Source: Thermodesulfovibrionales bacterium | GTDB lineage: Bacteria; Nitrospirota; Thermodesulfovibrionia; Thermodesulfovibrionales; UBA6898 | Length of the DNA: 64,000 bases | Assembly (NCBI GenBank): GCA_044450345.1 | Contig: JBIOIY010000003.1 | Location: 96,001 to 160,000, forward strand | Reading direction: 5' to 3' | Shown here: in pieces, positions 19,128 to 52,036 of the stretch | Numbering within the stretch: the stretch's first letter is position 1 | How the letters are laid out: the number at the start of each line of letters is the position of its first letter | Notes under the pieces: model-generated | Database searches by the model: none | The model's input: only the letters and a program-made list of their open reading frames with translations | Told to the model about the DNA's origin: nothing | Translations under genes and position numbers: made by a program

Positions 19128-19313
19128 ATGTCTTACCTCAATATACTGTTATTACACTTCCGCAAGATCGGAGGCTAAGTAGTTTAACACATCTTTGCAT
19201 CTTGTATTGAGGTTACTGAGCGGTAACATATTTTTTATTTCAGATATGGAACACACCTCCTTATCCGCGGGCGCGAAGGAAATAAGCGACTTTCTCGCGC
19301 AGGTCGAAGAGGC

Positions 19314-21496: not shown

Positions 21497-21551
21497 CTTC
21501 ATGATAATTTCATCAGGTTGTAATAATGACTTAACAAAAAGCGCGTATTAT
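21497..21551 (+). promoter_or_regulatory. Pho-box-like promoter (metallophosphoesterase)
   Basis: CTTCAT-N5-TTTCAT-N5-TGTAAT-N5-CTTAAC-N10-TATTAT. Confidence 0.75.
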
Positions 21552-24681: not shown

Positions 24682-24736
24682 TTTCATGGATGTGTAACGG
24701 CATCGTCATCGAATGGTAAAGTTGCCGGTGTATAGT
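24682..24736 (+). promoter_or_regulatory. Pho-box-like promoter (mgsA)
   Basis: TTTCAT-N5-TGTAAC-N5-CGTCAT-N5-GGTAAA-N10-TATAGT. Confidence 0.72.
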
Positions 24737-25333: not shown

Positions 25334-25388
25334 TGTAATAGAAATGTAATGTTTCCTTCACACTGCGGTAATATTTGTCCTTTACACT
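25334..25388 (+). promoter_or_regulatory. Pho-box-like promoter (second phoB)
   Basis: TGTAAT-N5-TGTAAT-N5-CTTCAC-N5-GGTAAT-N10-TACACT. Confidence 0.78.
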
Positions 25389-27409: not shown

Positions 27410-27464
27410 CTTAACAAGAATGTAATCCTTCCTTAATGATGCCGTAACGATCATATCGTAAGCT
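27410..27464 (+). promoter_or_regulatory. Pho-box-like promoter (PHP-glycosyltransferase operon)
   Basis: CTTAAC-N5-TGTAAT-N5-CTTAAT-N5-CGTAAC-N10-TAAGCT. Confidence 0.8.
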
Positions 27465-28198: not shown

Positions 28199-29413
28199 GT
28201 GAACATGATTTTATTCTGGATCTTTGCAGGCATTACCTGCTTTGGGATGATCGGATATCTGCTTCAAATTGTCGCGGTCCGGTCATATACGGCTCCCCCC
28301 AACTCAGGGGAAAGCATGCGCTTTCCCCGATCTTTTTCTCCTGTCTCAATCCTTAAACCGCTCAAAGGTCTTGATGACGGCCTGTTCGACAACCTCGAAA
28401 GCTTCTGCAATCTTGATTATCCTCACTATGAGATCATCTTTGCACTGCAGAACCAGAATGACCCGGCCCATAAAGTGGTAAGGAAGATAAAGGAGAAATA
28501 CCCTTTAAAAGACATAACCATTGTCGTCGAACATTGCGATGAGGGGCTGAACCCCAAAGTAAACAATCTTATCCCGGCGTACAAAAGGGCCAAATATGAC
28601 CTTATATTGATCAGCGACAGTAATGTCCGCGTGGGAAAAGACTATCTGGCGGATATTTCTCAGCACATGGATGACCCGTCTGTGGGGCTTGTCAGCAATA
28701 TGATCAGGGGCGTAAGCGGTCGGTCCCTTGGCGCCGTTATGGAAAATCTCCACCTGAACTCCTTTATAGTGGGAAGCGTCTGCTTCCTCGACAAATATCT
28801 CAAGATGCCTTGTGTCGTGGGCAAGTCAATGCTGATGAGGAAGACCGACCTCGAAGCTATAGGGGGTTTCTCGTCCGTAAAGGACTTTCTTGCGGAGGAC
28901 TACATCATCGGCGAAAGAATTCACGCGCTCGGCAAAAGGGTCGTCCTTTCCTGTCATCTTATCAATAATGTCAATGAATACTGGGGCGTAAAGAGGTTTT
29001 TAAACCGTCATACAAGATGGGGAAAGCTGAGATGGCACATCGGAGGCGCAAAGTATTTCTCTGAATTGGCCGGCAATGCCGTGTTCATGTCCTTTATGCC
29101 GGTGGTCATAATGCCGATGTCCAAAGTGTCTTTATTGTTGGCTGCGGCCGTCAGTTCCCTGAAAATAGTTCATGATTTCTACATCGGCAAAAAACTTCGT
29201 GCTGATATGAATCCCCTTCTCTATTTGTTGTCCCCTGTCAAGGACCTTATTATCGGATTCGTATGGTTTGTGCCGATCCTGAGCAACACCGTGGCCTGGA
29301 GAGGCAACAGATATATCATCGGCAAGGACTCGGTGCTCTCACGCTATCCCGATGACAGTTTCTGGTCGTGGCGGTACAGGATCATGGACGTAATAAAAAC
29401 AAGGATTGCATAG
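28199..29413 (+). CDS. Ceramide-glucosyltransferase-like (GT21/HpnI-like) lipid glycosyltransferase
   Basis: N-terminal TM; 'VSILKPLKG', 'NPKVNNL', 'ISDSNV', 'LAEDY' and 'RHTRWGKLR'. Confidence 0.85.
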   Translation: MNMILFWIFAGITCFGMIGYLLQIVAVRSYTAPPNSGESMRFPRSFSPVSILKPLKGLDDGLFDNLESFCNLDYPHYEIIFALQNQNDPAHKVVRKIKEKYPLKDITIVVEHCDEGLNPKVNNLIPAYKRAKYDLILISDSNVRVGKDYLADISQHMDDPSVGLVSNMIRGVSGRSLGAVMENLHLNSFIVGSVCFLDKYLKMPCVVGKSMLMRKTDLEAIGGFSSVKDFLAEDYIIGERIHALGKRVVLSCHLINNVNEYWGVKRFLNRHTRWGKLRWHIGGAKYFSELAGNAVFMSFMPVVIMPMSKVSLLLAAAVSSLKIVHDFYIGKKLRADMNPLLYLLSPVKDLIIGFVWFVPILSNTVAWRGNRYIIGKDSVLSRYPDDSFWSWRYRIMDVIKTRIA

Positions 29414-31744: not shown

Positions 31745-31800
31745 TGTAACAGAAAATTAACACTCCTTTAATAATCCATTAACAGACCGTTTGCTATGCT
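31745..31800 (+). promoter_or_regulatory. Pho-box-like promoter (Cys-rich ORF)
   Basis: TGTAAC-N5-ATTAAC-N5-TTTAAT-N5-ATTAAC-N11-TATGCT; an extra in-phase TGTAAT at 31723. Confidence 0.78.
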
Positions 31801-31819
31801 ACTGACCAGGGAGGCAACT

Positions 31820-32008
31820 ATGAATATACAATACATTATCTGTCCCCATCTTAAAGGCAGTTATGACGGAGCGGTCTGCAGCAGCGTCAGCAAGTTGATC
31901 AAGAACATAGAAGACGTCACCATTAAATTGTGTATGGGCAGGCATTACGAGGTATGCTCGATATATCGGGAGTCTCTGCTCCCTCAGGAGCCTGTCAGTG
32001 CCATTTAA
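31820..32008 (+). CDS. Small Cys-rich protein (C-P-x10-C-x17-C-x7-CSIY), 62 aa
   Basis: GGGAGG SD before ATG 31820; shared Cys spacing. Confidence 0.75.
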   Translation: MNIQYIICPHLKGSYDGAVCSSVSKLIKNIEDVTIKLCMGRHYEVCSIYRESLLPQEPVSAI

Positions 32009-32122: not shown

Positions 32123-32178
32123 TTTCATATTCCCTTAACTTAAATGACATCATGCCGTAAAAACCAAAATGATATCCT
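32123..32178 (+). promoter_or_regulatory. Pho-box-like promoter (HMA-like and two Cys-rich ORFs)
   Basis: TTTCAT-N5-CTTAAC-N5-TGACAT-N5-CGTAAA-N11-TATCCT. Confidence 0.65.
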
Positions 32179-32212
32179 TAAACTGGATTGTATTTGGAAG
32201 AAGGAAACTCGA

Positions 32213-32506
32213 ATGATCACCTATATCATCAAACATCATGTCCCGGGGCAGATAAGGCTGGATGTTCCTGTATTGAGAAAAATTGCCGAGTATCGGCTAA
32301 AAAAGATATCGAAGGCCGTGACAAGGCTTCCCGTCTTTACGGGAATAAGAGACCTTACGGTAAATCCAGGGAACGGCAGCGTAGCTATTGAATATGACAC
32401 CGAAGTTGTCGATATCATAGATTATCTGGAAGACATGGCAGTTATTGTCGAAACGCTGGATTGTCTGGAAGGACAAACGCTGGATTGTCCGGAAGGACAC
32501 CGATGA
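32213..32506 (+). CDS. Cys-less HMA-like (HMA2-type) domain protein
   Basis: 'KHHVPGQIRLDVP...GIRDLTVNPGNGSVAIEYD'; AAGGA SD before ATG 32213. Confidence 0.7.
   Translation: MITYIIKHHVPGQIRLDVPVLRKIAEYRLKKISKAVTRLPVFTGIRDLTVNPGNGSVAIEYDTEVVDIIDYLEDMAVIVETLDCLEGQTLDCPEGHR
32451..32498 (+). repeat. 24-bp tandem duplication with 1 mismatch
   Basis: aaacgctggattgtctggaaggac / aaacgctggattgtccggaaggac. Confidence 0.9.
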
Positions 32507-32517
32507 AGGAGAAAGAT

Positions 32518-32679
32518 ATGGCTTGTATTGATTATCTGGAGACAGAGGCAAGGTGTTCGAGAGGGATCCCGGTCGCGCATCTTTTCAGGCGTTTCTTCTG
32601 TGAGTCAAAGCCTGAAAAATGCCCGATTGTCTTGTGGGAAGTATCTTCTCGGGCGATAGATAACACTAAATCATCCTAA
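32518..32679 (+). CDS. Small Cys-rich protein, divergent member (C-x9-C-x14-C-x6-CPI)
   Basis: AAGGAG SD before ATG 32518; MACIDYLETEARC...FFCESKPEKCPIV. Confidence 0.6.
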   Translation: MACIDYLETEARCSRGIPVAHLFRRFFCESKPEKCPIVLWEVSSRAIDNTKSS

Positions 32680-32689
32680 GGAGGAAGCC

Positions 32690-32869
32690 ATGCAGTGCCC
32701 GAATCTTTTGAAATGGGTAATATCATCATGCAAAGCCGTGGAGAGACCCTATGTCCCGAGCCTTTTTGAGCTGGAGGAGTATTGTAGCACCGGAGATCAC
32801 AGGAAGTGTCCTTTTTACATGAGAGACATCGTCAGGCCCAATACTGTGAGGGATAAAGTGTCCGCATAA
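32690..32869 (+). CDS. Small Cys-rich protein not in the ORF track, 59 aa (C-P-x9-C-x17-C-x7-CPFY)
   Basis: AAGGAGG SD; translated by hand as MQCPNLLKWVISSCKAVERPYVPSLFELEEYCSTGDHRKCPFYMRDIVRPNTVRDKVSA*. Confidence 0.8.
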   Translation: MQCPNLLKWVISSCKAVERPYVPSLFELEEYCSTGDHRKCPFYMRDIVRPNTVRDKVSA

Positions 32870-33129: not shown

Positions 33130-33423
33130 ATGGGATTGCTTGATGATGTATTTAAAGGCGGCAATGTTATAACGGGCTTGGCTATCGGCATCGGAGCAGC
33201 GGTGCTTGGACCGGTTGTATTGCCTATATTGGCCGGGGCTGCGAAACCTTTGGCAAAGGCCGCGATAAAGGGCGGCCTTGCGCTGTGTGCAAAAGGAAAG
33301 GAGTCAGCTGCCGAGTTCGGCGAGGTCTTTGAAGATATTGTTGCAGAAGCGAAAGCGGAACTCGCGGAAGAGCACGAAAAGGCAATTCCTGTTCCGCCTA
33401 CCGAAGCGGAACAAAGTGTCTAA
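33130..33423 (+). CDS. DUF5132-like small GxxxG membrane protein (FezA-like)
   Basis: 'GLAIGIGAAVLGP...KPLAKAAIKGG...GEVFEDIVAEAKAE'; TAGACA-17-TAGACT promoter and AAGGAG SD. Confidence 0.75.
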   Translation: MGLLDDVFKGGNVITGLAIGIGAAVLGPVVLPILAGAAKPLAKAAIKGGLALCAKGKESAAEFGEVFEDIVAEAKAELAEEHEKAIPVPPTEAEQSV

Positions 33424-33901
33424 TATCCCGGAAGCATTTATAGGCCATAAGATGACGGGCAGGTTGAGACTAAGGGTCCCGTCGAGAAGAGGAGATGGCG
33501 CATATCTGGGAAAAATCACTGAGGAATTCTCATCTCTCCCGGGCATTGCGCAGGTAATCGTGAACACCGAAACATCGAGCGTTCTCTTCCTGCATAATCT
33601 TTCAGAAGACGCAATTATGGGACATCTCAGTGCAAGCGGTCTGTTCAGAATTTCGGGGGCTCCCACAGGTCAAGGAGACGTGCATAGCGGAGTCAAAGGA
33701 TGTTTTCGGGAGATGTCCCGCAAAGTCGAGAAGGCGACGGGAGGAACGATGGGTATCAGTGAAGTTGCCTTCCTTGCGCTGTTCGGCGCCGGGGTCATGC
33801 AGATAGGTCGGGGGAATTTTACTGCGATCCCCTGGTACACGGCATTTTGGTATGCGCTTAATATCTTTCTGAAATCAGACGCACAGAAGGCCGGGGAATA
33901 G
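33416..33901 (+). CDS. HMA-like domain with C-terminal hydrophobic segments (FezC-like)
   Basis: GTG 33416 overlaps the upstream stop; 'HKMTGRLRLRVP...VNTETSSVLFLH'; C-terminus 'FLALFGAGVMQI...PWYTAFWYA'. Confidence 0.72.
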   Translation: MSNIPEAFIGHKMTGRLRLRVPSRRGDGAYLGKITEEFSSLPGIAQVIVNTETSSVLFLHNLSEDAIMGHLSASGLFRISGAPTGQGDVHSGVKGCFREMSRKVEKATGGTMGISEVAFLALFGAGVMQIGRGNFTAIPWYTAFWYALNIFLKSDAQKAGE

Positions 33902-34029
33902 CTGTACTCATCCTGTCTGAAGGTGAAGGCGCAATAAACCCGGAGAGTTCTATTTTTTCATCAGCCTTTTGAAAAAGATGAATGGCTCAGTCAAAAAGTA
34001 ACTTTTCTCAACAGAGAAGGAGGTCAGTT

Positions 34030-34710
34030 ATGTCTCAGGAAAAAGTCATGCGCGGCACTCGTTACGCAGAAGAGGTAAGCGAGGCCGGGACGACCGTAAA
34101 AGAGGGCGTAGTCAGCAGCCTTAAAGGTCTCAATGAGATTGAGGCGGAAATCGTGAGCCTCGTGAGGAACACGGTTTCCAACACTTTGCGTGCAACGGGA
34201 GAGGTGGCGATCGAAAGTATCTCCATTTCGAAAGACGTCATCAAGGGGGCTATCCAGGCCACAGAGGAGGTTGGAACAGGACTTATCCTGAGCACGAAAA
34301 GTGTTGCCAAAGGGGTGATCATGGGGGTGAGTGATGTAGGCGGCGATGTGGTAGCTGTTGCAGGCCAGACAGTAAAAGGCGCGGTAAAGGGGGCCGCTGA
34401 AGTCGGCGCGGATGTCGCCCTTGTTGCAAGGAGAGCGGTCGATGGCGTCATCGAGGCAACAAAGGAGATAGGGGGGAATGTGGAAGATGTCGCGAAAGTG
34501 GCAGTCGGAGGGGCGATTGAGGCTGCAGGGACAATAGGTAATACGGCGGTGAAGGCTGTTAGGGAGATGCTCGTCGGCGTGGTCGAGGGCGTAAAGGAGA
34601 TTGCGAGCGCAGCTCTGCCTAAACCGAGGACCTCCACACCGGAGACAAAAGCGCCTGCATCAAAACCGGTTGTTGCGGAAAAAGCGGCTGCGACCAGGAA
34701 AAAGAAGTAA
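34030..34710 (+). CDS. Gly/Ala/Val-rich 22-residue helical repeat protein with a Lys/Ala/Pro tail
   Basis: AAGGAGG SD before ATG 34030; at least 7 tandem 22-aa units; paralog at 42706. Confidence 0.8.
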   Translation: MSQEKVMRGTRYAEEVSEAGTTVKEGVVSSLKGLNEIEAEIVSLVRNTVSNTLRATGEVAIESISISKDVIKGAIQATEEVGTGLILSTKSVAKGVIMGVSDVGGDVVAVAGQTVKGAVKGAAEVGADVALVARRAVDGVIEATKEIGGNVEDVAKVAVGGAIEAAGTIGNTAVKAVREMLVGVVEGVKEIASAALPKPRTSTPETKAPASKPVVAEKAAATRKKK

Positions 34711-34722
34711 GAATAATACCCC

Positions 34723-37700
34723 GTGGTTCGGCCTGTACACGTTGCGGTAAGAGGAAGGGCCCGCTTTAAAGTAGCGGGCCTTTATCGGTCTCCCTTACTC
34801 AAAGATCGGATTGAACTCACCCTTAATTCACTTGACGGAATAAGAGAGGCATCGGCCAACACACATACAGGCAATGTTCTTGTATATTTCAATTCTGACA
34901 ATACTCCCGGGTCAATCGCATCGGCAATAGCAGCGGCAGTGTATGGCTACAGATCTCAGCATTGTAACAATCATTCTCCGGAAAATAAAGAAGACGCAGA
35001 CGGCATCATACCCTATCGGCGGAAAGAAGCTCCCGGAGAGCAAGGCAGGCCTGTTGTTACGAGGAGGAAATTAAGGAAGAGCATCATCAAGGCAGAGGAA
35101 CAGAATCCTGATCCCTGGCACCAGATGGATGCGCGTGAAGTGGCGGGAAAGTTTGGCACATCCCAGCACTACGGGCTTCCCAATGACATCGCAAAGACGA
35201 ATCTGAAGCGGTATGGTCCCAATGTCCTTCCGGAGGCGGTGCCCCGCTCCGGGTTAAGCATTTTCCTCGGCCAGTTTAACTCACTTCCTGTGGCACTGCT
35301 CGGCGTTGCTGCCGGGATTTCTATAGCCACGGGAGGCGTCGCCGATGCGATCGTAATTGCCGGCGTGGTGGTCATCAACGCAGTAATAGGGTATGGGACC
35401 GAAACCCAGACCGAAAAGACCATCCATGCATTGAAAAGCCTTGTCAGACCTTCTGCCACGGTCAAGCGGGATGAACAAATTATAGAACTCGGAGCAGAGG
35501 AAGTCGTCCCAGGAGATCTGCTGATCCTCAGACCGGGCAGTTACGTGCCGGCAGACGCAAGACTGCTGGAGACGTATCACCTGAGTATCGACGAGTCCGC
35601 ACTTACGGGAGAGAGTCTCCCTGTGATCAAAACAAGTTTGCCTTGCGAGGTTGAAGAAATCCCCCTTGCAGACAGGGTCAATATGGTCTATATGGGGACA
35701 CTCGTGACCGGCGGGCAAGGGATCGCCGTGGTCGTGGCAACGGGCAGGTTTACCGAGATAGGAAAGATCCAGGCGCTTGTAGGAGAGGCAGAATCTCCGG
35801 ACACCCCGATGGAGCGGCAGCTTCATAAAATGGGCACACAGCTTGTCTTTATAAGCGGAGCTGTCTGCGGACTTGTCTTTATCGTCGGACTTCTGCGCGG
35901 ATACGGCTTTTTAGAGATGCTCAAGAGTTCCATATCTCTTGCCGTTGCCGCAGTCCCGGAGGGACTCCCTACTGTTGCAACTACAACCCTCGCCTTAGGT
36001 ATAAGGGACATGAGGCGGCATAACGTGCTCATCAGGCATCTTAATGCGGTCGAAACACTGGGGGCCGTACAGACGATCTGTCTTGACAAGACGGGAACAA
36101 TCACGATGAACAGGATGTCGGTAGTCGCCGTCCATACCGGCATGAAACGATATGAAGTCTCAAATGGGGCGATCACGGCTTCCCGGGAGAAGGTGAGCCC
36201 CTATTCAGTCGACGAACTCCTTAGGCTGCTGCACGTGAGCGTGCTCTGCAGCGAGAGCGAGGTCGAAAGAGAAAAGGGTACTTATGCGGTCAGCGGCTCT
36301 CCGACCGAAAACGCCCTGATCTATATGGCGTTGAACGCCGGTATCAATGCCGTTTCTCTTAGAGAGAGCTTCCCCGTGTTGAGCATCACTCATCGTTCGG
36401 AAAGTCGCAATTACATGTCTACCGTCCACAAATCCGAGAGTGGACCAGTCATCATTGCGGTAAAGGGGAGCCCCGGCGAGGTCCTTTCAATCTGCAACTG
36501 GCACATGAAGGGCGGAGAGAAGCTTCCGTTGACGGAGGAGGACATGCTTCTCATAGAGACGGAAAATGAACGCATGGCCGGTCAGGCGCTCAGGGTCCTC
36601 GGCGTTGCCTATTCATCGCGGGACGATGAGGAAGCCCTCTCCGAAGATAGAAAAGATCTTCATGAAGACCTGATATGGCTCGGCCTCGTCGGCATGGCAG
36701 ACCCCATCAGGGAAAATGTGAAAGAACTGGTCCACGGGTTCCACGAAGCCGGAATCGATACGGTCATGATAACGGGAGACCAGAGCCCCACCGCATATGC
36801 TATTGGAAAGGAATTGAATCTGAGCAATAACGGACACCTCGAAATCCTTGATTCTACGCACCTTGCGAATATCGAGCCCGAGGTCATGAAGGCCCTCTGT
36901 GAGAGGATACACGTCTTTGCCCGCGTCAGTCCTGCACATAAGCTCCAGATTGTCCAAGCGCTCCAGTCCGCCGGGAAAGTGGTTGCGATGACCGGAGACG
37001 GTATCAACGACGGCCCGGCGCTCAAGGCAGCGGATATAGGGATCGCCATGGGCCACACAGGCACTGATGTCGCCCGCGAGGTGGCTGACGTGATTATTGA
37101 AGACGACAATCTCGAAACAATGCTTATCGCGGTAAGCAGGGGAAGGACAATCTATAACAATATCCGGAAATCAGTCCACTTCCTGCTGTCCACAAACCTC
37201 AGCGAGATCATGGTGATGTTCACGGCGATCTCGACAGGTCTTGGCCAGCCGCTCAATGCGATGCAGCTTCTCTGGATCAATCTTATCACGGACATTGCTC
37301 CGGGACTGGCCCTTGCCCTTGAACTTCCGGAGCCGGATGTGTTGAGCCGTCCCCCCCGGGACCCACACGAGCCGATTGTCAGAAATTCCGATTTCAAGCG
37401 GATAGCTTTCGAGTCGGCAATGCTTTCCGCGGGCTCCCTGGGGGCTTACGGGTATGGCATTGCACGCTATGGAATAGGACCGCGGGCTGGTTCGGTTGCA
37501 TTCCTCAGCCTTACGGCAGGACAGCTCCTTCACGCTCTGAGCTGCCGCTCTGAGCAACACAGCATGTTCAGCGCCGAGAGACTGCCACGGAACAAGTATC
37601 TTGAAGTGGCACTGGGCGGTTCCTTTGCGCTCCAGATACTGGCGATGACTGTCCCCGGGCTGAGGAGACTTTTGGGAATAGGTCCAATCAGTATCCTCGA

Positions 37701-37782
37701 TGCTCTTGTGATCGGCGGAAGCGCTGCTTTTCCGCTTCTCGTAAACGAGGCGACAAAATCCCCCTTGAGGTTGGCAAGATGA
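34723..37782 (+). CDS. P2A-type (Ca2+-like) cation-translocating P-type ATPase with an extra N-terminal HMA-like domain
   Basis: TGES, AVAAVPEGLP, DKTGT, GDGINDGPAL, STNLSE and QLLWINLITD; N-terminus 'VHVAVRGRARFKV...SANTHTGNVLVYFN'. Confidence 0.92.
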   Translation: MVRPVHVAVRGRARFKVAGLYRSPLLKDRIELTLNSLDGIREASANTHTGNVLVYFNSDNTPGSIASAIAAAVYGYRSQHCNNHSPENKEDADGIIPYRRKEAPGEQGRPVVTRRKLRKSIIKAEEQNPDPWHQMDAREVAGKFGTSQHYGLPNDIAKTNLKRYGPNVLPEAVPRSGLSIFLGQFNSLPVALLGVAAGISIATGGVADAIVIAGVVVINAVIGYGTETQTEKTIHALKSLVRPSATVKRDEQIIELGAEEVVPGDLLILRPGSYVPADARLLETYHLSIDESALTGESLPVIKTSLPCEVEEIPLADRVNMVYMGTLVTGGQGIAVVVATGRFTEIGKIQALVGEAESPDTPMERQLHKMGTQLVFISGAVCGLVFIVGLLRGYGFLEMLKSSISLAVAAVPEGLPTVATTTLALGIRDMRRHNVLIRHLNAVETLGAVQTICLDKTGTITMNRMSVVAVHTGMKRYEVSNGAITASREKVSPYSVDELLRLLHVSVLCSESEVEREKGTYAVSGSPTENALIYMALNAGINAVSLRESFPVLSITHRSESRNYMSTVHKSESGPVIIAVKGSPGEVLSICNWHMKGGEKLPLTEEDMLLIETENERMAGQALRVLGVAYSSRDDEEALSEDRKDLHEDLIWLGLVGMADPIRENVKELVHGFHEAGIDTVMITGDQSPTAYAIGKELNLSNNGHLEILDSTHLANIEPEVMKALCERIHVFARVSPAHKLQIVQALQSAGKVVAMTGDGINDGPALKAADIGIAMGHTGTDVAREVADVIIEDDNLETMLIAVSRGRTIYNNIRKSVHFLLSTNLSEIMVMFTAISTGLGQPLNAMQLLWINLITDIAPGLALALELPEPDVLSRPPRDPHEPIVRNSDFKRIAFESAMLSAGSLGAYGYGIARYGIGPRAGSVAFLSLTAGQLLHALSCRSEQHSMFSAERLPRNKYLEVALGGSFALQILAMTVPGLRRLLGIGPISILDALVIGGSAAFPLLVNEATKSPLRLAR

Positions 37783-38990
37783 AAAAAGACTTCATATTTA
37801 CATCCGAATCGGTTACCGAAGGCCATCCTGACAAACTCTGTGACCAGATCAGCGACGCACTTGTCGACCACTTCCTTCAGCAGGACCCCTTTTCGCGGGT
37901 CATTGCCGAGTGCGCCGTATCAACAGCGATCATTTTCATCGCCGCGAGGTTTTCATCCGACGCCAGTGTCGATTTCCCGAATATCGCCAGACAGGTCATC
38001 AACCAGATCGGGTATGACCAGCAGGCTTTTAACGCGAAGACCTGCAGCATCGTCACAAGCCTCAAAGAACTGCCCTCCGCAGAGGACCAGCGCTTTGACG
38101 AGAGGAATCTGACGGAAGATGAAATTGACGCTATCCCCGTCCGTAATCAGGTCACCGTATTCGGATTTGCCTGCAACCAGACACCCTCGCTAATGCCCCT
38201 TCCGATCTGGCTCGCCCATCGACTGGCACGAAAACTTACCGCAGTGAGACTCCAAAAAGTGCTTCCCTATCTGGCGCCCGACGGAAAAACCCAGGTCAGC
38301 GTGGAGTATAAGAATGGAAAGCCCTACCGGATCCACACCATAACGGTCATAGCCAGTCAGAACAAGACGGAGAAGTCGGGCGGTCCAGACCTTAAGAGAC
38401 TTTATGATGATATGCTGGATACCGTCATTCGTCCCGCCTTTCTTGACGAGGAGATCAGACCCGATGCCGGCACAAGGATATTCATAAACCCCGATGGTCC
38501 TTTTATCACGGGCGGACCCTCAGTGCATTCAGGGCTCACAGGGAGGAAGAATGCGATCGACACCTATGGTGAATATTCCCGGCAAAGCGGCGCGGCCCTC
38601 AGCGGCAAGGACCCTCTTCGGATAGACAGAATCGGCGCGTATGCCGCCCGGTATGCGGCAAAGAATATCGTTGCCGCGGGCATCGCCGACGAATGTGAAA
38701 TTCAGTTGAGCTATTCCATAGGGCTGTCCCGTCCAGTAAGCATTCAGGTAGAGACATTCGGCACAGGTCGGATTTCCGACGAAGAGATTTCCAGAATTAT
38801 CGAAGGCCTGTTTGATTTCCGCCTCGCAGGGATTGTCCGCCAGTTCAACCTCAGATTTCTCCCCTCCATAATCAAGGGAGGCTTTTACAGGAAACTTGCC
38901 TCTTATGGTCATGTTGGCAGAATGGATATCGGTCTTCCCTGGGAATTGACGGATAAGGCCGGCATACTTCGTGACGAAGTTGCCGGGTGA
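37779..38990 (+). CDS. Divergent S-adenosylmethionine synthetase (MetK) paralog
   Basis: FTSESVTEGHPDK, PDGKTQV, GLTGRK, SGKDP and YGHVGR are retained; GAGDQG is replaced by VRNQV; ATGA overlap with the ATPase gene. Confidence 0.9.
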   Translation: MKKDFIFTSESVTEGHPDKLCDQISDALVDHFLQQDPFSRVIAECAVSTAIIFIAARFSSDASVDFPNIARQVINQIGYDQQAFNAKTCSIVTSLKELPSAEDQRFDERNLTEDEIDAIPVRNQVTVFGFACNQTPSLMPLPIWLAHRLARKLTAVRLQKVLPYLAPDGKTQVSVEYKNGKPYRIHTITVIASQNKTEKSGGPDLKRLYDDMLDTVIRPAFLDEEIRPDAGTRIFINPDGPFITGGPSVHSGLTGRKNAIDTYGEYSRQSGAALSGKDPLRIDRIGAYAARYAAKNIVAAGIADECEIQLSYSIGLSRPVSIQVETFGTGRISDEEISRIIEGLFDFRLAGIVRQFNLRFLPSIIKGGFYRKLASYGHVGRMDIGLPWELTDKAGILRDEVAG

Positions 38991-39083
38991 GAGACTTATG
39001 ATAGCCGGGTACGTGTCGATCCTTCCGGTGGCCCGTTAAGAAGGCATCTACCGGTTGTAAGCGCCCCGCTTTTTTTGTTCTCC

Positions 39084-39139
39084 TGTAACGAAAACTTCAC
39101 GGTAGCGTCAACTTCCCTTAACGTTCCATCCGTTACAAT
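39084..39139 (+). promoter_or_regulatory. Pho-box-like promoter (olsB/olsA-like pair)
   Basis: TGTAAC-N5-CTTCAC-N5-CGTCAA-N5-CTTAAC-N11-TACAAT. Confidence 0.75.
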
Positions 39140-39173
39140 TCACCTGTCAATTTCTTCGACAGGGAGGTGCGAC

Positions 39174-39968
39174 ATGTATCACGATGCCAAAACGAATTTT
39201 ATGATGACGCAGGGTCGCTTTCTGGTAAAGCTGGCGGAGGACCGAAGTGAGTTGGAAAAGGCTCTGAAACTCAGATTTGAGGTGTTCAATCTCGAACTCA
39301 AGAAAGGGCTCGCCATATCCTACCTTAATGGGATGGACACGGATGAATATGATAAGTACTGCGCCCATCTCATCGTAATCGACGCTGACTTCGACAGGGT
39401 GGTCGGGACCTACCGGTTATTACCTGGTTTTGTTGCTGAATTCAATGTCGGATACTATTCGGAAAACGAGTTCGATATGACCAACATAAAGAACCTGCAA
39501 GGGGAAAAACTTGAGCTCGGCCGATCATGCGTGCACAGGGACTATCGAAACGCCCAGGTCATTAACCTGTTGTGGGCGGGTATTGCAAGGTACGTGGAAT
39601 TGTATAACATCCGTTATTTATTCGGATGTGCAAGCCTTTGTTCCTCGGTCACGGAAGAGGTCAGCCTTGTCTATTCCTACCTCTCCCGTCATCACCCTGC
39701 CGAACCTCGTTATTCCGTATATCCGCTGCAGAAAGTAACTGGACTGCGCATGCTCCAGGTCGAAGACCGGAGAGAGGCATTGAAAATGCTGCCGCCGCTC
39801 ATAAAAGGGTATACGTCCCTTGGCGCAAACATTTGCGGAAAGCCATCGTACGATGCCATTTTCGGAACTGCTGATTTCTTCGTTCTCCTCCAGACGGAAA
39901 AAATTATGGCCCGCTACCGGAAGAAGTATTTCCAGGAACAAGAGGAAGCGTTGTGCCCCGTATCATGA
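39174..39968 (+). CDS. OlsB-like GNAT N-acyl amino acid synthase
   Basis: 'LRFEVF..E', 'DTDEYDKYCAHL', 'VVGTYRLL', 'YYSENEFD', 'LELGRSCVHRDYR', 'LFGCAS' and 'PPLIKGY'; GGGAGG SD before ATG 39174. Confidence 0.85.
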   Translation: MYHDAKTNFMMTQGRFLVKLAEDRSELEKALKLRFEVFNLELKKGLAISYLNGMDTDEYDKYCAHLIVIDADFDRVVGTYRLLPGFVAEFNVGYYSENEFDMTNIKNLQGEKLELGRSCVHRDYRNAQVINLLWAGIARYVELYNIRYLFGCASLCSSVTEEVSLVYSYLSRHHPAEPRYSVYPLQKVTGLRMLQVEDRREALKMLPPLIKGYTSLGANICGKPSYDAIFGTADFFVLLQTEKIMARYRKKYFQEQEEALCPVS

Positions 39969-40759
39969 GGGCGGGCAAAGCACTGTGCTTGGCGGTGTTG
40001 CATCTCGCATGTCTGTTGACCGGGTTGGTCATCGCGGTCCCCTTTCTTGTCAGCCGCGACCGGAAGGCCAGAGCAAGGGCCGGGGGTATGATGATCTGGG
40101 CAAGATGCGCGTGTTGGATACTGGGCATAAGGATTCATCGCACGGGTTCATGTCCTCCCGTCAAGGGCATGTTTGTGGTCAGCAACCATAGCAGTTATCT
40201 CGATATCATTGTTCTCGGAAGTTTATTTCCCGCAGTTTTTTTGGCGAAGAAGGAAGTCGGGTCCTGGCCCCTGATCGGGTGGCTTGCGCGGCTTGCAGGT
40301 ACGCGCTTTGTCGTGCGGGAATCGAGAAAGTCCACAGCGGACGCGCTTGAAAATATAAAACGGCTACTGGATTCCGGAATGAATGTGATCGTTTTTCCTG
40401 AGGCTACTACCAATGATGGGACAATGGTCAGGGACTTCAAGAGTTCCCTTTTTAAAGCTCCTGTTGACATGAAGATACCGGTGCTGCCGGTCAGCGTCAT
40501 GTACTCGCACGTGAACTCAATCGCCATGACCCCGGAGATGCGGGACTCTGTTGCGTGGTACGGGGAAATGGACCTTATTCCTCATCTTTGGGATGTGCTT
40601 GGCCTGAAGCGGATTGATGTCAGGGTGCACCGCTGCCCTGTGATACGGGAGGTCCTGGCTGAGGACAGCTCCAAAACCAGGAAGATACTAGCCGCTTTCG
40701 CCCATAGCGAAGTCATGTCAGGATTGGAAAGTCTGAGACTTGAGATATCCTCTTCCTAA
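39953..40759 (+). CDS. Lysophospholipid/lyso-ornithine lipid acyltransferase (PlsC/OlsA-like)
   Basis: NHSSYLD (HX4D), FLAKKEV, FPEATT and FKSSLF. Confidence 0.88.
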   Translation: MPRIMRAGKALCLAVLHLACLLTGLVIAVPFLVSRDRKARARAGGMMIWARCACWILGIRIHRTGSCPPVKGMFVVSNHSSYLDIIVLGSLFPAVFLAKKEVGSWPLIGWLARLAGTRFVVRESRKSTADALENIKRLLDSGMNVIVFPEATTNDGTMVRDFKSSLFKAPVDMKIPVLPVSVMYSHVNSIAMTPEMRDSVAWYGEMDLIPHLWDVLGLKRIDVRVHRCPVIREVLAEDSSKTRKILAAFAHSEVMSGLESLRLEISSS

Positions 40760-40793: not shown

Positions 40794-41132
40794 TCATTCT
40801 TCGCCAAATCCACCTTCAACAGCCTCGATTACCTTTTCCGCAACTCCCAGGGCTTTTTCCGTTGTTTTCTCTACCCGCTCGTCGCACGTTTCTGCCTCGG
40901 TTAGACGGAAATAGCCGTTTTTTTCGAGAATCCCGATGATCTGTTCGCAATTGATTTTTTTCTCATCAAAGTGAATTATCGCACTTCCAGTAGCAGCATG
41001 AATCTCTGTCGCCGATATGCCATTAAGTCCTTTTATGAATGTTTCAAACTCTTTCGTTTTTACGGCATTATCATGAAGTATGGGTGATTCAATTCTCATC
41101 CTGCCAGGAACGTAATGAATATAGTATTTCAT
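40794..41132 (-). CDS. Cys-less HMA-like (HMA2-type) protein
   Basis: 'MKYYIHYVPGRMRIESP...ATGSAIIHFD...ILEKNGYF'; paralog of 50993..51361. Confidence 0.72.
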   Translation of the reverse strand: MKYYIHYVPGRMRIESPILHDNAVKTKEFETFIKGLNGISATEIHAATGSAIIHFDEKKINCEQIIGILEKNGYFRLTEAETCDERVEKTTEKALGVAEKVIEAVEGGFGEE

Positions 41133-41243
41133 ATATAACCATGATACCACTCCACTTATATCAAATGATAGAATTTATTGAATGTCATAATCCTCCCTTC
41201 TACAGGCCTTCTGCAATGTCTACTATAAAGGTCCCAACGCTGA

Positions 41244-41861
41244 TTAAATGATCTGTTCTATCCCTATGGCAATCAATAAGAGACCCGCCACAACCGAGGC
41301 CTTTTTGGATATATTCCATTTTATAAAGAATTCTGCGACGTAGTTCCCCGCCCATAGAGCAAGAAAACTGAGCACCGCAGACAAAAATCCTACCCAAAAT
41401 GAGTTAAGTCCAATCATCCCGGCGCTTACCCCTCCTCCTACATTGTTTATCGAAAGCGCAATGCCAAGGAAAGTTGCTTCTCTGAAATCGATATGTTTTG
41501 AATTATCCATATCAGCCTTTTTGGGATCCATCAAAACATGAAAGGCACTTTTCTTGTTTGCCTGGACAGACTCGGCAGAACAATCATTGTTTTTTTTCAG
41601 GTATGGTTCTAATATCATCCACAAGCCGATGGCGGTAAGCAGCAACATCGCTATCAGAGAGGATAGTTGCTTACTGATAACTCCTGATATTATTGTTCCT
41701 GAGAAAGCTGCAACGAATGAAATGACAAAGGTAATTACAGAAATCCAAAGATTTATCGGAGTGGATATCCTCACTCCTCGAATGCTATAGGCGATTCTGA
41801 CACCTATATTGTCAAAATTATTCATTAAGGCAATAAAAAACGTATAAAAAAAATGATGCAT
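41244..41861 (-). CDS. YtaF/MntP-family membrane protein (putative Mn2+ efflux)
   Basis: Two repeats 'ALMNNFDNIGV..AY' and 'GIALSINNVGGGVSAG'; 'KADMDNSKHIDFREA'. Confidence 0.7.
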   Translation of the reverse strand: MHHFFYTFFIALMNNFDNIGVRIAYSIRGVRISTPINLWISVITFVISFVAAFSGTIISGVISKQLSSLIAMLLLTAIGLWMILEPYLKKNNDCSAESVQANKKSAFHVLMDPKKADMDNSKHIDFREATFLGIALSINNVGGGVSAGMIGLNSFWVGFLSAVLSFLALWAGNYVAEFFIKWNISKKASVVAGLLLIAIGIEQII

Positions 41862-42119
41862 TACATTGGTCCTTTCAGTGCGGAAACACACTCTAGAGTG
41901 GGATATTAATTTTTCTCAGGTCGCGGAAATACCGCCCGCATATTGTGGGCTACTTAACAATAGCCGGAGCTCACCATAATTTTGTCTAAGTCCTCAACGA
42001 CCTGTTGTTTCCCAAGTATATCAGTTGTCGAGTTGATCTAGAGTATATCCATAGGCAAGTAATGAAAAAATCCTTGCTCACGCCCGAAACTCCGGATAAA
42101 GCATACTCCGGAAAATGCA

Positions 42120-42705: not shown

Positions 42706-43302
42706 ATGAAAGCTGAAGCAACCAGTAACGTAAATGTTCGTGAAGAAATCGGCAAGGCGGGAACGACCGTCAAAGACGGAATGATCAGCAGCTTGAAAGG
42801 GATTAATGAGATCGAAGCAGAGATTGTAAGCCTGGTCCGAAACACAGTATCCCATACGTTTCATGCAGGCGGCGAAGTCGCACAGGAGAGTCTCTCACTC
42901 ACCAGGGAGGTGGTGAAAGGCGCAATAACTGCCGCTGAGGAAGTCGGCACAGGCCTGATCATGAGCACAAAAAGTGTAGCAAAAGGGATAGTGATGGGAG
43001 TAAGCGATGTCGGCGGTGATGCGGTTGCTGCCGCAAGCCAGACTGTAAAAGGCGCGGTAAAGGGAGCCGCGGAGGTCGGCGCTGATGTTGCGCTGGTAGC
43101 CAGGAGAACAGTTGATGGCGTCATCGAGGCGACCAAAGAAATAGGTGGAAATGCGGAAGACGTTGCGAAAGTGGTTGTGGAGGGTGCAATCGAAGCTGCG
43201 GGCAGTATCGGAAACACTGCGGTGAAAGCGGTAAGGGAAATGTTGGTCGGCGTTGTTGAGGGAGTAAAGGAAGTTGCAAATGCGGCCCTTCCGAAGCGAT
43301 AA
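42706..43302 (+). CDS. Second 22-residue Gly/Ala/Val repeat protein, lacking the basic tail
   Basis: Near-identical stretches to 34030..34710 (NEIEAEIVSLVRNTVS; QTVKGAVKGAAEVGADVALVARR). Confidence 0.82.
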   Translation: MKAEATSNVNVREEIGKAGTTVKDGMISSLKGINEIEAEIVSLVRNTVSHTFHAGGEVAQESLSLTREVVKGAITAAEEVGTGLIMSTKSVAKGIVMGVSDVGGDAVAAASQTVKGAVKGAAEVGADVALVARRTVDGVIEATKEIGGNAEDVAKVVVEGAIEAAGSIGNTAVKAVREMLVGVVEGVKEVANAALPKR

Positions 43303-43387: not shown

Positions 43388-43609
43388 ATGACAGGTGTAT
43401 GCCAGTACGATAATGATGCGGAAGAGAGACAACATTCCAAGGCTATCCAAATGCTCGCAGGGCAATTAGGCATGCCCGAGAAGGAGATAAGAGAACTTTA
43501 CGAGGAAATTCTCTGTAGTATCAAAGAAGGGGCAAGGATAAAGGATTATCTCACCGTTCTGGTGAGTCGCAACGTAAGAGATTCGATAAGAAGGAGTACC
43601 CTTCAGTAA
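43388..43609 (+). CDS. DUF3562-like small three-helix protein
   Basis: 'ARIKDYLTVLVSRNVR' signature; GGAG SD. Confidence 0.6.
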   Translation: MTGVCQYDNDAEERQHSKAIQMLAGQLGMPEKEIRELYEEILCSIKEGARIKDYLTVLVSRNVRDSIRRSTLQ

Positions 43610-46632: not shown

Positions 46633-46687
46633 TTTCACAGAGGTTTAATAAAATCGTAATGATAAGGTAATTTGAGGATTGTAAAAT
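46633..46687 (+). promoter_or_regulatory. Pho-box-like promoter (DUF2934 operon)
   Basis: TTTCAC-N5-TTTAAT-N5-CGTAAT-N5-GGTAAT-N10-TAAAAT. Confidence 0.75.
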
Positions 46688-51668: not shown

Positions 51669-51724
51669 ATTATATATCGATAGGTGTTACATTCAAGTGA
51701 AGGCAATGTTACATTTCGGTTAAA
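51669..51724 (-). promoter_or_regulatory. Pho-box-like promoter (zinc ribbon and HMA-like genes), probably leaderless
   Basis: Minus strand TTTAAC-N5-TGTAAC-N5-CTTCAC-N5-TGTAAC-N11-TATAAT; the ATG starts 7 nt after the -10. Confidence 0.78.
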
Positions 51725-51843: not shown

Positions 51844-51898
51844 TATAACGCAAACTTAATATTTCCTTAATATTGTTGTAACAATGCAATGCTATTTT
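51844..51898 (+). promoter_or_regulatory. Pho-box-like promoter, distal to pstS
   Basis: TATAAC-N5-CTTAAT-N5-CTTAAT-N5-TGTAAC-N10-TATTTT. Confidence 0.7.
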
Positions 51899-51981: not shown

Positions 51982-52036
51982 TGTAATATGAATTTAACTT
52001 CCTTGTAACATTCTTGTAATAATTGGGCTGTATCCT
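51982..52036 (+). promoter_or_regulatory. Pho box and promoter of pstS
   Basis: TGTAAT-N5-TTTAAC-N5-TGTAAC-N5-TGTAAT-N10-TATCCT immediately upstream of pstS. Confidence 0.85.

Follow-up and report, generated by a model that had tools for sequence, protein, structure and literature searches.

We analyzed a window of 64,000 nucleotides from a Thermodesulfovibrionales bacterium (contig JBIOIY010000003.1, positions 96,001 to 160,000), whose genome assembly comprises 3.19 Mb in 86 contigs and is 91% complete. On the forward strand, an open reading frame (ORF) with an ATG start (37779..38990) encodes a 403-residue paralog of MetK, the bacterial enzyme that makes S-adenosylmethionine (SAM). The protein retains the methionine adenosyltransferase (MAT) fold and the ligands for the triphosphate chain and the metals, while the ligands for methionine are replaced. 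Directly upstream lies the gene for a P2-type ATPase of 1019 residues with an N-terminal CoBaHMA (HMA_2) domain (34723..37782, forward strand; Pfam and NCBIfam), and the TGA stop codon of this pump overlaps the ATG of the MetK-like gene (ATGA). The two genes are part of a cassette that recurs at related loci. As judged by sequence comparison, the MetK-like protein very probably belongs to a distinct MetK-fold subfamily, spread over several phyla, that no longer makes SAM.

All three MAT domains are present (PF00438, PF02772 and PF02773 in Pfam), and alignment with E. coli MetK gives 44% identity. An AlphaFold2 model has a mean predicted local distance difference test score (pLDDT) of 84.6 and a predicted template modelling score (pTM) of 0.87, and its top Foldseek matches in the Protein Data Bank (PDB) are MetK structures (TMq 0.86). 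Against TIGR01034, the NCBIfam equivalog model for metK, the protein scores 375.6 bits, above the cut-off of 309.4. A word-indexed protein search returned more than 120 protein clusters at 76-99% identity; all clusters that are named by their source are labelled MAT or SAM synthetase, and the organisms given are metagenome-assembled genomes of Nitrospirota or Thermodesulfovibrionales. A search of sequencing runs matched DNA metagenomes throughout, with at most 0.27 of the sampled words and no RNA run among the matches.

We aligned the MetK-like ORF with MetK from E. coli K-12 and with the canonical MetK of its own genome; the literature numbering used here equals the alignment position minus 1. 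In the E. coli enzyme (EcMAT), as described in the available excerpts of PMC3853416, H14 is the catalytic acid, F230 stacks on the adenine, and D163 and D238 bind the ribose hydroxyls, while the amino group of methionine is held by D238 and E55, its carboxylate by Q98 and K269, and its side chain is contacted by I102. Excerpts of a second paper (PMC1282579) agree on the roles of Q98, D238, E55, D163, R229, F230 and S99. The ligands for the triphosphate, Mg2+ and K+ are all present in the MetK-like ORF (H14, D16, E42, K165, R244, K245, K265 and D271), with the motifs GHPDK (H14, D16), DGKTQV (D163, K165), GRK (R244, K245) and GKD (K265) kept, as are F230 and R272. The methionine ligands E55, Q98, I102, D238 and K269, on the other hand, are R, L, E, H and R, and both ligands of the amino group (E55 and D238) are charge-reversed. 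The corresponding motifs read AARFS for GGEIT (E55R), LPSAE for QSPDI (Q98L), GGPSVH for GGPMGD (D238H) and LRIDR for SKVDR (K269R). Because the amino-group ligands are reversed in charge and the carboxylate loop is gone, the binding of methionine has probably been lost.

Two further motifs differ, with PVRNQV in place of GAGDQG (G117R, D118N, G120V) and GPF in place of GRF (R229P). The original prediction had drawn up a list of retained and changed residues, every item of which is correct in our alignment, and the methionine contacts that it named (E55, Q98, D238 and K269) agree with the excerpts of PMC3853416. Beyond that list, the glycine-rich loop GGGAFSGKD has become SGAALSGKD, T43C and G253E are found, and there are two insertions, one of five residues (IASQN) and one of seven (FLPSIIK) near the C-terminus; the gating loop is longer and remodelled. 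GAGDQG and GGGAFSGKD are the PROSITE signatures of MetK. Both are altered in the MetK-like ORF, at G117, D118, G120, G258, G260 and F262.

To place these substitutions, 66 members of the clade were compared with 35 canonical MetKs at positions that are at least 90% conserved in both groups. At 94 positions the conserved residue is the same, and at 15 it is conserved but different (L27V, T43C, G54A, E55R, D238H, I247A, G253E, G258S, F262L, K269R, V270I, A301S, L335F, L344F and I350F). At nine positions, Q98, I102 and G117 among them, canonical MetK shows little or no variation, whereas the clade has become variable. G117, D118 and G120 of GAGDQG are invariant in the canonical sets, as are all checked positions of GGGAFSGKD except A261; G117, G258 and F262, each 100% conserved in the 35 canonical sequences, are replaced in the clade.

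Scanning a single genome for each species gave 80 loci, 77 of the look-alike type and three canonical (Gastranaerophilales among them, at 50% identity). The states at the ligand positions are identical in 77 of the 77 look-alike loci, which come from Nitrospirota, Thermodesulfobacteriota (Syntrophorhabdus, Syntrophus, Geobacteraceae, Desulfobulbaceae and Desulfuromonadales), Brocadiaceae, Deferrimicrobium and others. Since E55R, D238H, K269R and roughly a dozen more substitutions are fixed in 85 related loci and the triphosphate and metal ligands are invariant, the changes are not drift. A pseudogene or drifting duplicate was considered and ruled out: the reading frame is uninterrupted, and identity to the window protein ranges from 55 to 96% within the clade. 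The mean column identity of the clade alignment is 77%.

An exhaustive search of representatives also yielded distant look-alikes, at about 43-57% identity. A tree of 71 rows (25 cassette-type sequences, 20 odd representatives and 26 canonical MetKs), made with FastTree, the least cautious method available, splits with support 100 into 31 rows of canonical MetK and a superclade of 40 look-alike rows; the cassette clade, with the window protein inside it, is one branch with support 98. The ligand positions were then compared across three groups aligned with L-INS-i: canonical (12 sequences), cassette (16) and distant (19). H14, D16, E42, R244, K245, K265 and D271 are kept in all three groups alike; K165 is invariant in the cassette clade and a lysine in 8 of the 19 distant members. 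Across the superclade, D238 is replaced by H and K269 by R, each in 34 of 35 sequences, and E55 by R or H in 31 of 35. What stays constant in the superclade is thus a core made up of the phosphate/metal site and this new basic trio, and the adenine site lies outside it.

The composition of this core bears on the chemistry that the look-alikes may catalyze. We favor a chemistry centred on the triphosphate chain, because the superclade as a whole keeps the phosphate ligands but not F230. It could be the tripolyphosphatase half-reaction, or the conversion of ATP to adenosine and tripolyphosphate (PPPi) followed by cleavage to pyrophosphate (PPi) and phosphate (Pi); we consider this assignment possible, somewhat short of probable. 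An adenosyltransferase with a new acceptor, which we rank second, would have the C5' of ATP attacked by an anionic S, Se or O nucleophile held by R55, H238 and R269, giving a new adenosyl compound and PPPi. The retention of H14 and D163, and of F230 in 12 of the 16 cassette members, fits such an enzyme, as does the intact machinery for the triphosphate leaving group; conservation also extends to the new residues at 55, 238 and 269, as a substrate site would require. However, F230 is kept in only 2 of the 19 distant members of the pump-linked superclade, S99 and R229 are replaced, and no recurrent neighboring gene makes or uses a compound of this kind, the recurrent neighbors being transporters, Pho genes and small proteins. 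We consider a new acceptor rather unlikely.

The distribution of the look-alike was assessed in a phylum sample of 401 genomes. It occurs in 55 of them, with 56 matches of at least 63% identity and at least 553 bits; all canonical matches lie at or below 50% identity and 376 bits, so that the scores are bimodal with a clean gap between the two groups. The look-alike was not found in any of the 14 other genomes of the family to which the window belongs, one of them of the same genus, and its distribution is therefore patchy. One genome of the sample (G160) carries two look-alike copies (G160:C19:203269-204465 and G160:C2:121008-122201, at 75% and 74% identity) in addition to a canonical metK.

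If the look-alike does not make SAM, its carriers should have another source, and a search for a canonical metK elsewhere in the genome had been set beforehand as a test. TIGR01034 matches the source genome in two places only: a canonical gene on contig C40 with 596.1 bits, and the MetK-like ORF, about 220 bits lower, with 375.2 bits in this genome-wide run. The ORF is thus not the only metK of the genome. A canonical metK is also present in five of five other cassette genomes tested, and at least one further MetK-type match was found in 51 of the 55 carriers. The four remaining carriers (G184, G156, G132 and G198) show no bacterial-type canonical metK, which counts against the loss of SAM synthesis, as does the passing of the TIGR01034 cut-off. 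In G184 and G156, an archaeal-type MAT (PF01941, 537-539 bits) is encoded about 6 kb away from the look-alike. Neither G132 (89% complete) nor G198 (100% by markers, 300 contigs) yielded another MAT; same-genus relatives of G198 have a single match, which is at canonical level, and assembly gaps are the probable cause of the single-MAT result in both.

We noted that, in one genus of the phylum, the archaeal-type MAT and the look-alike share a contig at a distance of about 6 kb (G184:C46:3575-4762, G156:C70:5491-6675 and G217:C2:330366-331553). G217, the congener, has three matches and a split bacterial metK in addition to the archaeal-type gene, which in that genus may be a replacement of the housekeeping MAT.

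The carriers also allow us to weigh the reading of the ORF as a second, divergent SAM synthetase, supplying SAM locally or under phosphate starvation. Its score against TIGR01034, the label given by every naming source, and G132 and G198, where it would be the sole MAT, all speak in its favor. Against it stand the replacement of all methionine contacts of EcMAT, two of them with reversed charge, the altered glycine-motif positions that are invariant in canonical MetK, the second MetK-type match in nearly all carriers together with the archaeal-type MAT in two more, and the fragmented or incomplete state of the G132 and G198 assemblies. We regard a second SAM synthetase as highly improbable. 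The original prediction that the protein is probably not a SAM synthetase is supported in so far as comparative evidence reaches: the canonical metK, the five replaced methionine contacts, their fixation in the clade and the link to an ATPase. It appears that the protein is a member of the MAT fold and not, functionally, of the MAT enzyme family, because the methionine ligands and the signature motifs, both of which were tested, are absent from it.

The ATPase encoded upstream has the E1-E2, HAD-type hydrolase and N- and C-terminal cation-ATPase domains in Pfam, in addition to the N-terminal match to HMA_2 (PF19991), which is the CoBaHMA domain. It falls below every NCBIfam equivalog cut-off, the best being the PMR1-type model with 625 bits against a cut-off of 798. 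Its best sequence matches in the PDB are SPCA1 (482 bits), LMCA1 and SERCA, and the motifs PEGLP in M4 and N..TD in M6 align with SPCA1, which suggests an ion site of the Ca2+ or Mn2+ type. Over 66 aligned sequences, H6, G11, R12, R14, L20 and R22 are conserved in the CoBaHMA domain of the pump, and the MetK-like protein has a conserved, clade-specific acidic loop with the consensus FDER..L...EEID.

The association of the two genes was examined by tblastn of the window neighbors against 85 look-alike loci, 81 of which have more than 300 nt of upstream DNA. All of these 81 loci have a P-type ATPase gene immediately before the look-alike, in the same orientation. The stop and start codons overlap as ATGA in 29 of 65 other loci and are separated by gaps of 3-84 nt in 31, with no spacing obtained for the other 5. 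The order DUF5132, CoBaHMA-membrane protein, repeat protein and ATPase is found in 49 of the 54 loci with at least 5.3 kb of upstream DNA, the exceptions being L022, L076 and three divergent loci (L085, L086 and L088). None of 75 canonical metK loci has an ATPase neighbor. A metagenome scan with the alignment of distant members, using a peptide pattern shared with canonical MetK, gave 80 loci, 8 of which, 44-77% identical to the window protein, have the H238/R269 signature, with the ATPase upstream in 7 and the eighth on a contig of 1.4 kb that is too short to show it; the other 72 served as controls, and an adjacent ATPase was found in 0 of the 72, one having a weak 29% match 6.4 kb away. The original prediction had asked whether the substitutions define an ATPase-linked clade, and the tree and the synteny together answer that they do. 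One metagenome contig of 1412 bases (L131) encodes a partial MetK relative with a third motif state (GGPRRD, SGKDPAHVDR), which is of neither the canonical nor the pump-linked type.

We considered whether the two proteins also occur as a functional fusion. Three of 120 listed longer proteins join both (P0272, P0273 and P0298), each represented by a single sequence. P0273 and P0298 lack the C-terminal helices of the pump and the N-terminal domain of the MetK-like protein, and P0272 lacks segments of the pump and the first few residues of the MetK-like protein; all three are likely deletions, pseudogenes or mis-assemblies, and the candidate was rejected. P0273 is named for Richelia sp., a cyanobacterium, and the fused proteins show that the gene pair exists in further lineages. 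The remaining long proteins mostly contain intein-type domains (PF14528, PF14890) or are joined to enzymes of an unrelated kind.

The strict pairing may be read in a different way, namely that the MetK-like protein is a non-catalytic or slow regulatory subunit that senses ATP, PPi, PPPi or Pi and gates the pump, for instance via the CoBaHMA domain, thereby coupling cation transport to the energy or phosphate status of the cell. The obligate pairing with frequent overlap of stop and start codons speaks in favor of such a subunit, as do the conserved basic residues of the CoBaHMA domain (H6, G11, R12, R14 and R22) and the acidic loop of the MetK-like protein. A complex prediction for the MetK-like dimer with residues 1-135 of the pump gave no verdict (score 0.00) and weighs neither way on binding. 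The full catalytic set (H14, D16, K165, R244, K245, K265 and D271) is invariant in the cassette clade, which binding alone would not obviously need, and we judge a purely regulatory role improbable.

Several small genes precede the pump, all on the forward strand. The run of co-directional genes is opened by a Cys-rich ORF of 70 residues (31796..32008) with a likely ATG start at 31821 behind GGAGG, followed by a small stand-alone CoBaHMA (HMA_2) protein (32144..32506; PF19991, E 8.6e-07, just under the gathering score) and a Cys-rich ORF of 59 residues (32690..32869) that recurs near the cassette in other loci. Homologues of the 70-residue ORF are likewise found in other loci. With a 72-residue ORF at 32461-32679, there are three small Cys-rich ORFs without a Pfam family in this region, and for two of the three, homologues are found next to the cassette at many loci, mostly on the opposite strand. 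Next come a DUF5132 small membrane protein (33130..33423; PF17195, E 7.7e-15) and a CoBaHMA (HMA_2) protein with a hydrophobic C-terminal segment (33278..33901; PF19991, E 2.3e-10), both conserved in position; the start of the latter is uncertain because its ORF overlaps the 3' end of the DUF5132 gene. A repeat protein of 242 residues, rich in Val, Gly, Ala and Glu (33982..34710), has no Pfam family and is conserved at about -3.9 kb from the start of the MetK-like gene. In a language-model feature search it resembles unnamed clusters and one "phasin family" cluster (0.92-0.96), which we take as a lead only.

CoBaHMA proteins are common around the cassette: 70 of 86 loci have them, with 134 copies in total. 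The MetK-like protein is the best conserved of the cassette proteins, with a median identity over the best high-scoring segment pair of 75%, versus 63% for the ATPase and 38% for the CoBaHMA-membrane protein. Between the MetK-like stop codon and the following olsB-like gene, a consensus scan found a weak terminator-like hairpin with a 5-bp stem and a T-run (39059..39071, forward strand). Rfam gave no match over the whole window at the gathering threshold, and no SAM or Mn2+ riboswitch was detected.

Genes for phosphate and cation handling surround the cassette. In the window, the upstream genes include PHO4/Pit, an OmpR-type regulator with a histidine kinase, Metallophos, PhoH, MGS-like, a second OmpR-type regulator, PHP, GT21 and HAD/NT5C genes, and the downstream genes include OlsB/OlsA, another CoBaHMA protein, MntP, Nramp and an MgtE-N/CBS protein. 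ORFs from 86 loci were clustered, with positions taken relative to the MetK-like start. Recurrent neighbors at fixed positions are a zinc-ribbon protein (33 loci, at about +3 kb on the opposite strand), a DUF3562 protein (27 loci, at about +2 kb on the same strand) and, immediately downstream, a CDF transporter (15 loci) or CorA (12 loci). Others vary in position: ABC permeases (17 loci), histidine kinases (16), PstS-like binding proteins (two clusters, in 12 and 6 loci), response regulators (11) and PhoH (8). When loci of 10 kb or more were searched with tblastn, 26 of 59 with the cassette had a Pst or PhoH gene no farther than 8 kb away, versus 0 of 32 controls, and 25 of 59 versus 1 of 32 had a CDF, CorA or MntP gene; the controls represent different taxa and the loci with the cassette are mutually related, so that these contrasts, like those for the arrays below, overstate independence and are descriptive rather than tests.

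A pattern resembling the Pho box, defined as three copies of KTNAY at 11-bp spacing, has 17 matches in the window, whereas 0.38 are expected and the maximum in 100 shuffles is 2. Four direct KTAAY repeats at exact 11-bp spacing (31746..31783, forward strand) lie 38 bp before the ATG at 31821, which opens the co-directional run of genes that ends with the MetK-like gene. Over 85 cassette loci the pattern has 356 matches, with about 9 expected from shuffles, versus 4 in 75 controls, and at least one array is present in 62 of the 85 loci versus 3 of the 75. To judge from these repeats, the window looks like a Pho-box regulon island, and Pho control of the pair of pump and look-alike is plausible.

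The window as a whole has about ten arrays of at least three KTNAY repeats, on the forward strand at 19212, 21498-21535, 24683-24709, 25335-25372, 27411-27448, 31746-31783, 46634-46671, 51856-51882 and 51983-52020, and on the reverse strand at 51686-51723. Five of them lie 38-136 bp upstream of forward-strand genes (Metallophos, MGS-like, OmpR-type regulator, PHP and the Cys-rich ORF). OlsB/OlsA-like genes, which score below the equivalog cut-offs (39075-40759, forward strand), and a GT21 glycosyltransferase gene (28199-29413, forward strand) flank the cassette, each recurring in 6-8 other loci. Phosphorus-free lipids such as ornithine lipids fit a phosphate-starvation island. OlsB and OlsA were rejected as core members of the cassette, being present in only 6 and 8 of 85 loci. 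A small CoBaHMA gene (40794-41150, reverse strand; HMA_2, E 8e-13) adjoins an MntP-like gene for a putative Mn efflux protein (41244-41891, reverse strand). Further downstream are a second member of the repeat-protein family (42706-43302, forward strand; 198 residues, no Pfam family) and a DUF3562 gene (43388-43609, forward strand).

We hypothesize that the MetK-like protein is a neofunctionalized enzyme of ATP or tripolyphosphate chemistry that acts as the soluble partner of the pump. Ligand binding, catalysis, the partnership with the pump and Pho control are parts that we infer. MetK has an intrinsic tripolyphosphatase step. The retained H14, D16 and D271 (Mg2+), E42 (K+), K165, R244, K245 and K265 would bind a nucleoside triphosphate or tripolyphosphate together with metals, and R or H at 55, H238 and R269, joined in the cassette clade by K or R at 117 and N118, would form a site for a different, probably anionic, ligand in place of methionine. 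The protein would be produced together with the CoBaHMA-tagged P2-type (Ca2+/Mn2+-like) ATPase, often through the overlapping codons, and would work beside the DUF5132, CoBaHMA-membrane and repeat proteins of the cassette. As the cassette lies within a predicted phosphate-starvation regulon, the release or handling of phosphate may be tied to the export or sequestration of divalent cations. Taken in its entirety, this proposal is tentative, and we place it a little below an even chance.

We speculate, with low confidence, that the MAT fold, for which one reaction is known so far, has been re-tooled such that an inorganic anion takes the place of methionine, for example by attack of phosphate on C5' to give AMP and tripolyphosphate, or that the protein is a dedicated hydrolase of tripolyphosphate or short-chain polyphosphate. 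Together with the Ca2+-type pump, it could then build or dissolve a store of divalent cations and phosphate under Pho control, in anaerobes for which neither PPK nor PPX was found.

Several findings weigh against the hypothesis of a soluble partner with phosphate-chain chemistry. D163 and, in the window protein, F230 are adenosine ligands that have been kept in a protein that still passes the metK model, and the protein may therefore catalyze a reaction that uses adenosine. The original prediction had proposed an anionic ligand from swaps of acidic to basic residues; E55R, D238H, D118N and the change of G117 to K or R make this reasonable, but new acidic residues (T227D/E, G253E, I102E/D) speak against a simple picture of a more basic pocket and make the charge argument two-sided. 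For the ATPase compartment to which the original prediction had Pi supplied, the analysis gave no sign. Pho control of the pair is no more than plausible because the arrays beside the core operon are mostly on the opposite strand in other loci, where divergent CoBaHMA and Cys-rich genes sit; in the window, read-through from 31.8 kb to 39 kb is presumed. PPK1 (PF02503), PPK2 (PF03976) and PPX/GppA (PF02541) were not found in the 91%-complete genome, whereas named control genomes matched. Without a known source of polyphosphate in this genome, the version of the hypothesis with polyphosphate as substrate is weakened.

Bacterial-type MetK is treated as a family with one function, and annotation pipelines accordingly name every member methionine adenosyltransferase. 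The window protein combines H238 and R269, R at 55 (R or H in the subfamily) and the triphosphate ligands, its gene stands behind a CoBaHMA-bearing P2-type ATPase, and it falls inside the clade; it thus belongs to what we define in the present work as a pump-linked MetK-like subfamily, for which no public name was found. If our reading is true, the subfamily represents a new activity on an old fold, and a systematic mis-annotation would be corrected. It would also provide a first enzymatic handle on the CoBaHMA/DUF5132 cassette, the remaining parts of which have until now come up only in connection with the marker gene of cyanobacterial calcium carbonate, and the predicted control by phosphate starvation makes the system testable. 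No description of a bacterial MetK look-alike or of its pairing with a pump was found in the literature searched, a search that lay outside the Gaschignard 2024 CoBaHMA paper and its supplements; the excerpts of a paper on intracellular Ca-carbonate in magnetotactic bacteria (PMC11773610) contain nothing on "adenosylmethionine", "HMA" or the cassette.

The closest described gene set, a candidate set for intracellular amorphous CaCO3, is the neighborhood of ccyA (calcyanin) in Microcystis aeruginosa PCC 7806. According to the passages of the preprint on DUF5132, HMA and P-type (10.1101/2024.07.07.602159), ccyA is flanked by a DUF5132 gene and a gene for a CoBaHMA protein with a C-terminal membrane hairpin, which are co-expressed with ccyA and a Ca2+/H+ exchanger. 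The two systems share, as far as these passages go, a DUF5132 protein and a CoBaHMA-membrane-hairpin protein beside a Ca2+ transporter. They differ in that Microcystis has a Ca2+/H+ exchanger as its transporter and ccyA as the marker gene; the same passages mention no MetK-like gene, P-type ATPase or repeat protein.

The pump of the cassette resembles SPCA1 (human, 8iww), LMCA1 (Listeria, 6zhf) and SERCA1a, with which it aligns over about 830 residues including DKTGT, TGES, PEGLP and N..TD. Unlike them, it has the extra N-terminal CoBaHMA domain, and it scores below every NCBIfam equivalog cut-off. To our knowledge, no solved or named relative among the P2-type ATPases has a MetK-like partner.

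Among the SAM synthetases, the archaeal-type MAT (PF01941) forms the other known lineage and is the apparent source of SAM in G184, G156 and G217. The excerpts of PMC3853416 describe it as a true MAT with methionine-binding residues of its own, and by sequence score it is not related to the pump-linked clade. Bacterial MetK (E. coli, TIGR01034) has the same three-domain fold, catalytic acid and Mg2+, K+ and triphosphate ligands as the look-alike. In contrast to bacterial MetK, the look-alike has changed methionine ligands, two changed glycine motifs, a remodelled gating loop and two insertions, and it forms a separate clade that is always encoded behind a P-type ATPase and is present in addition to a canonical metK.

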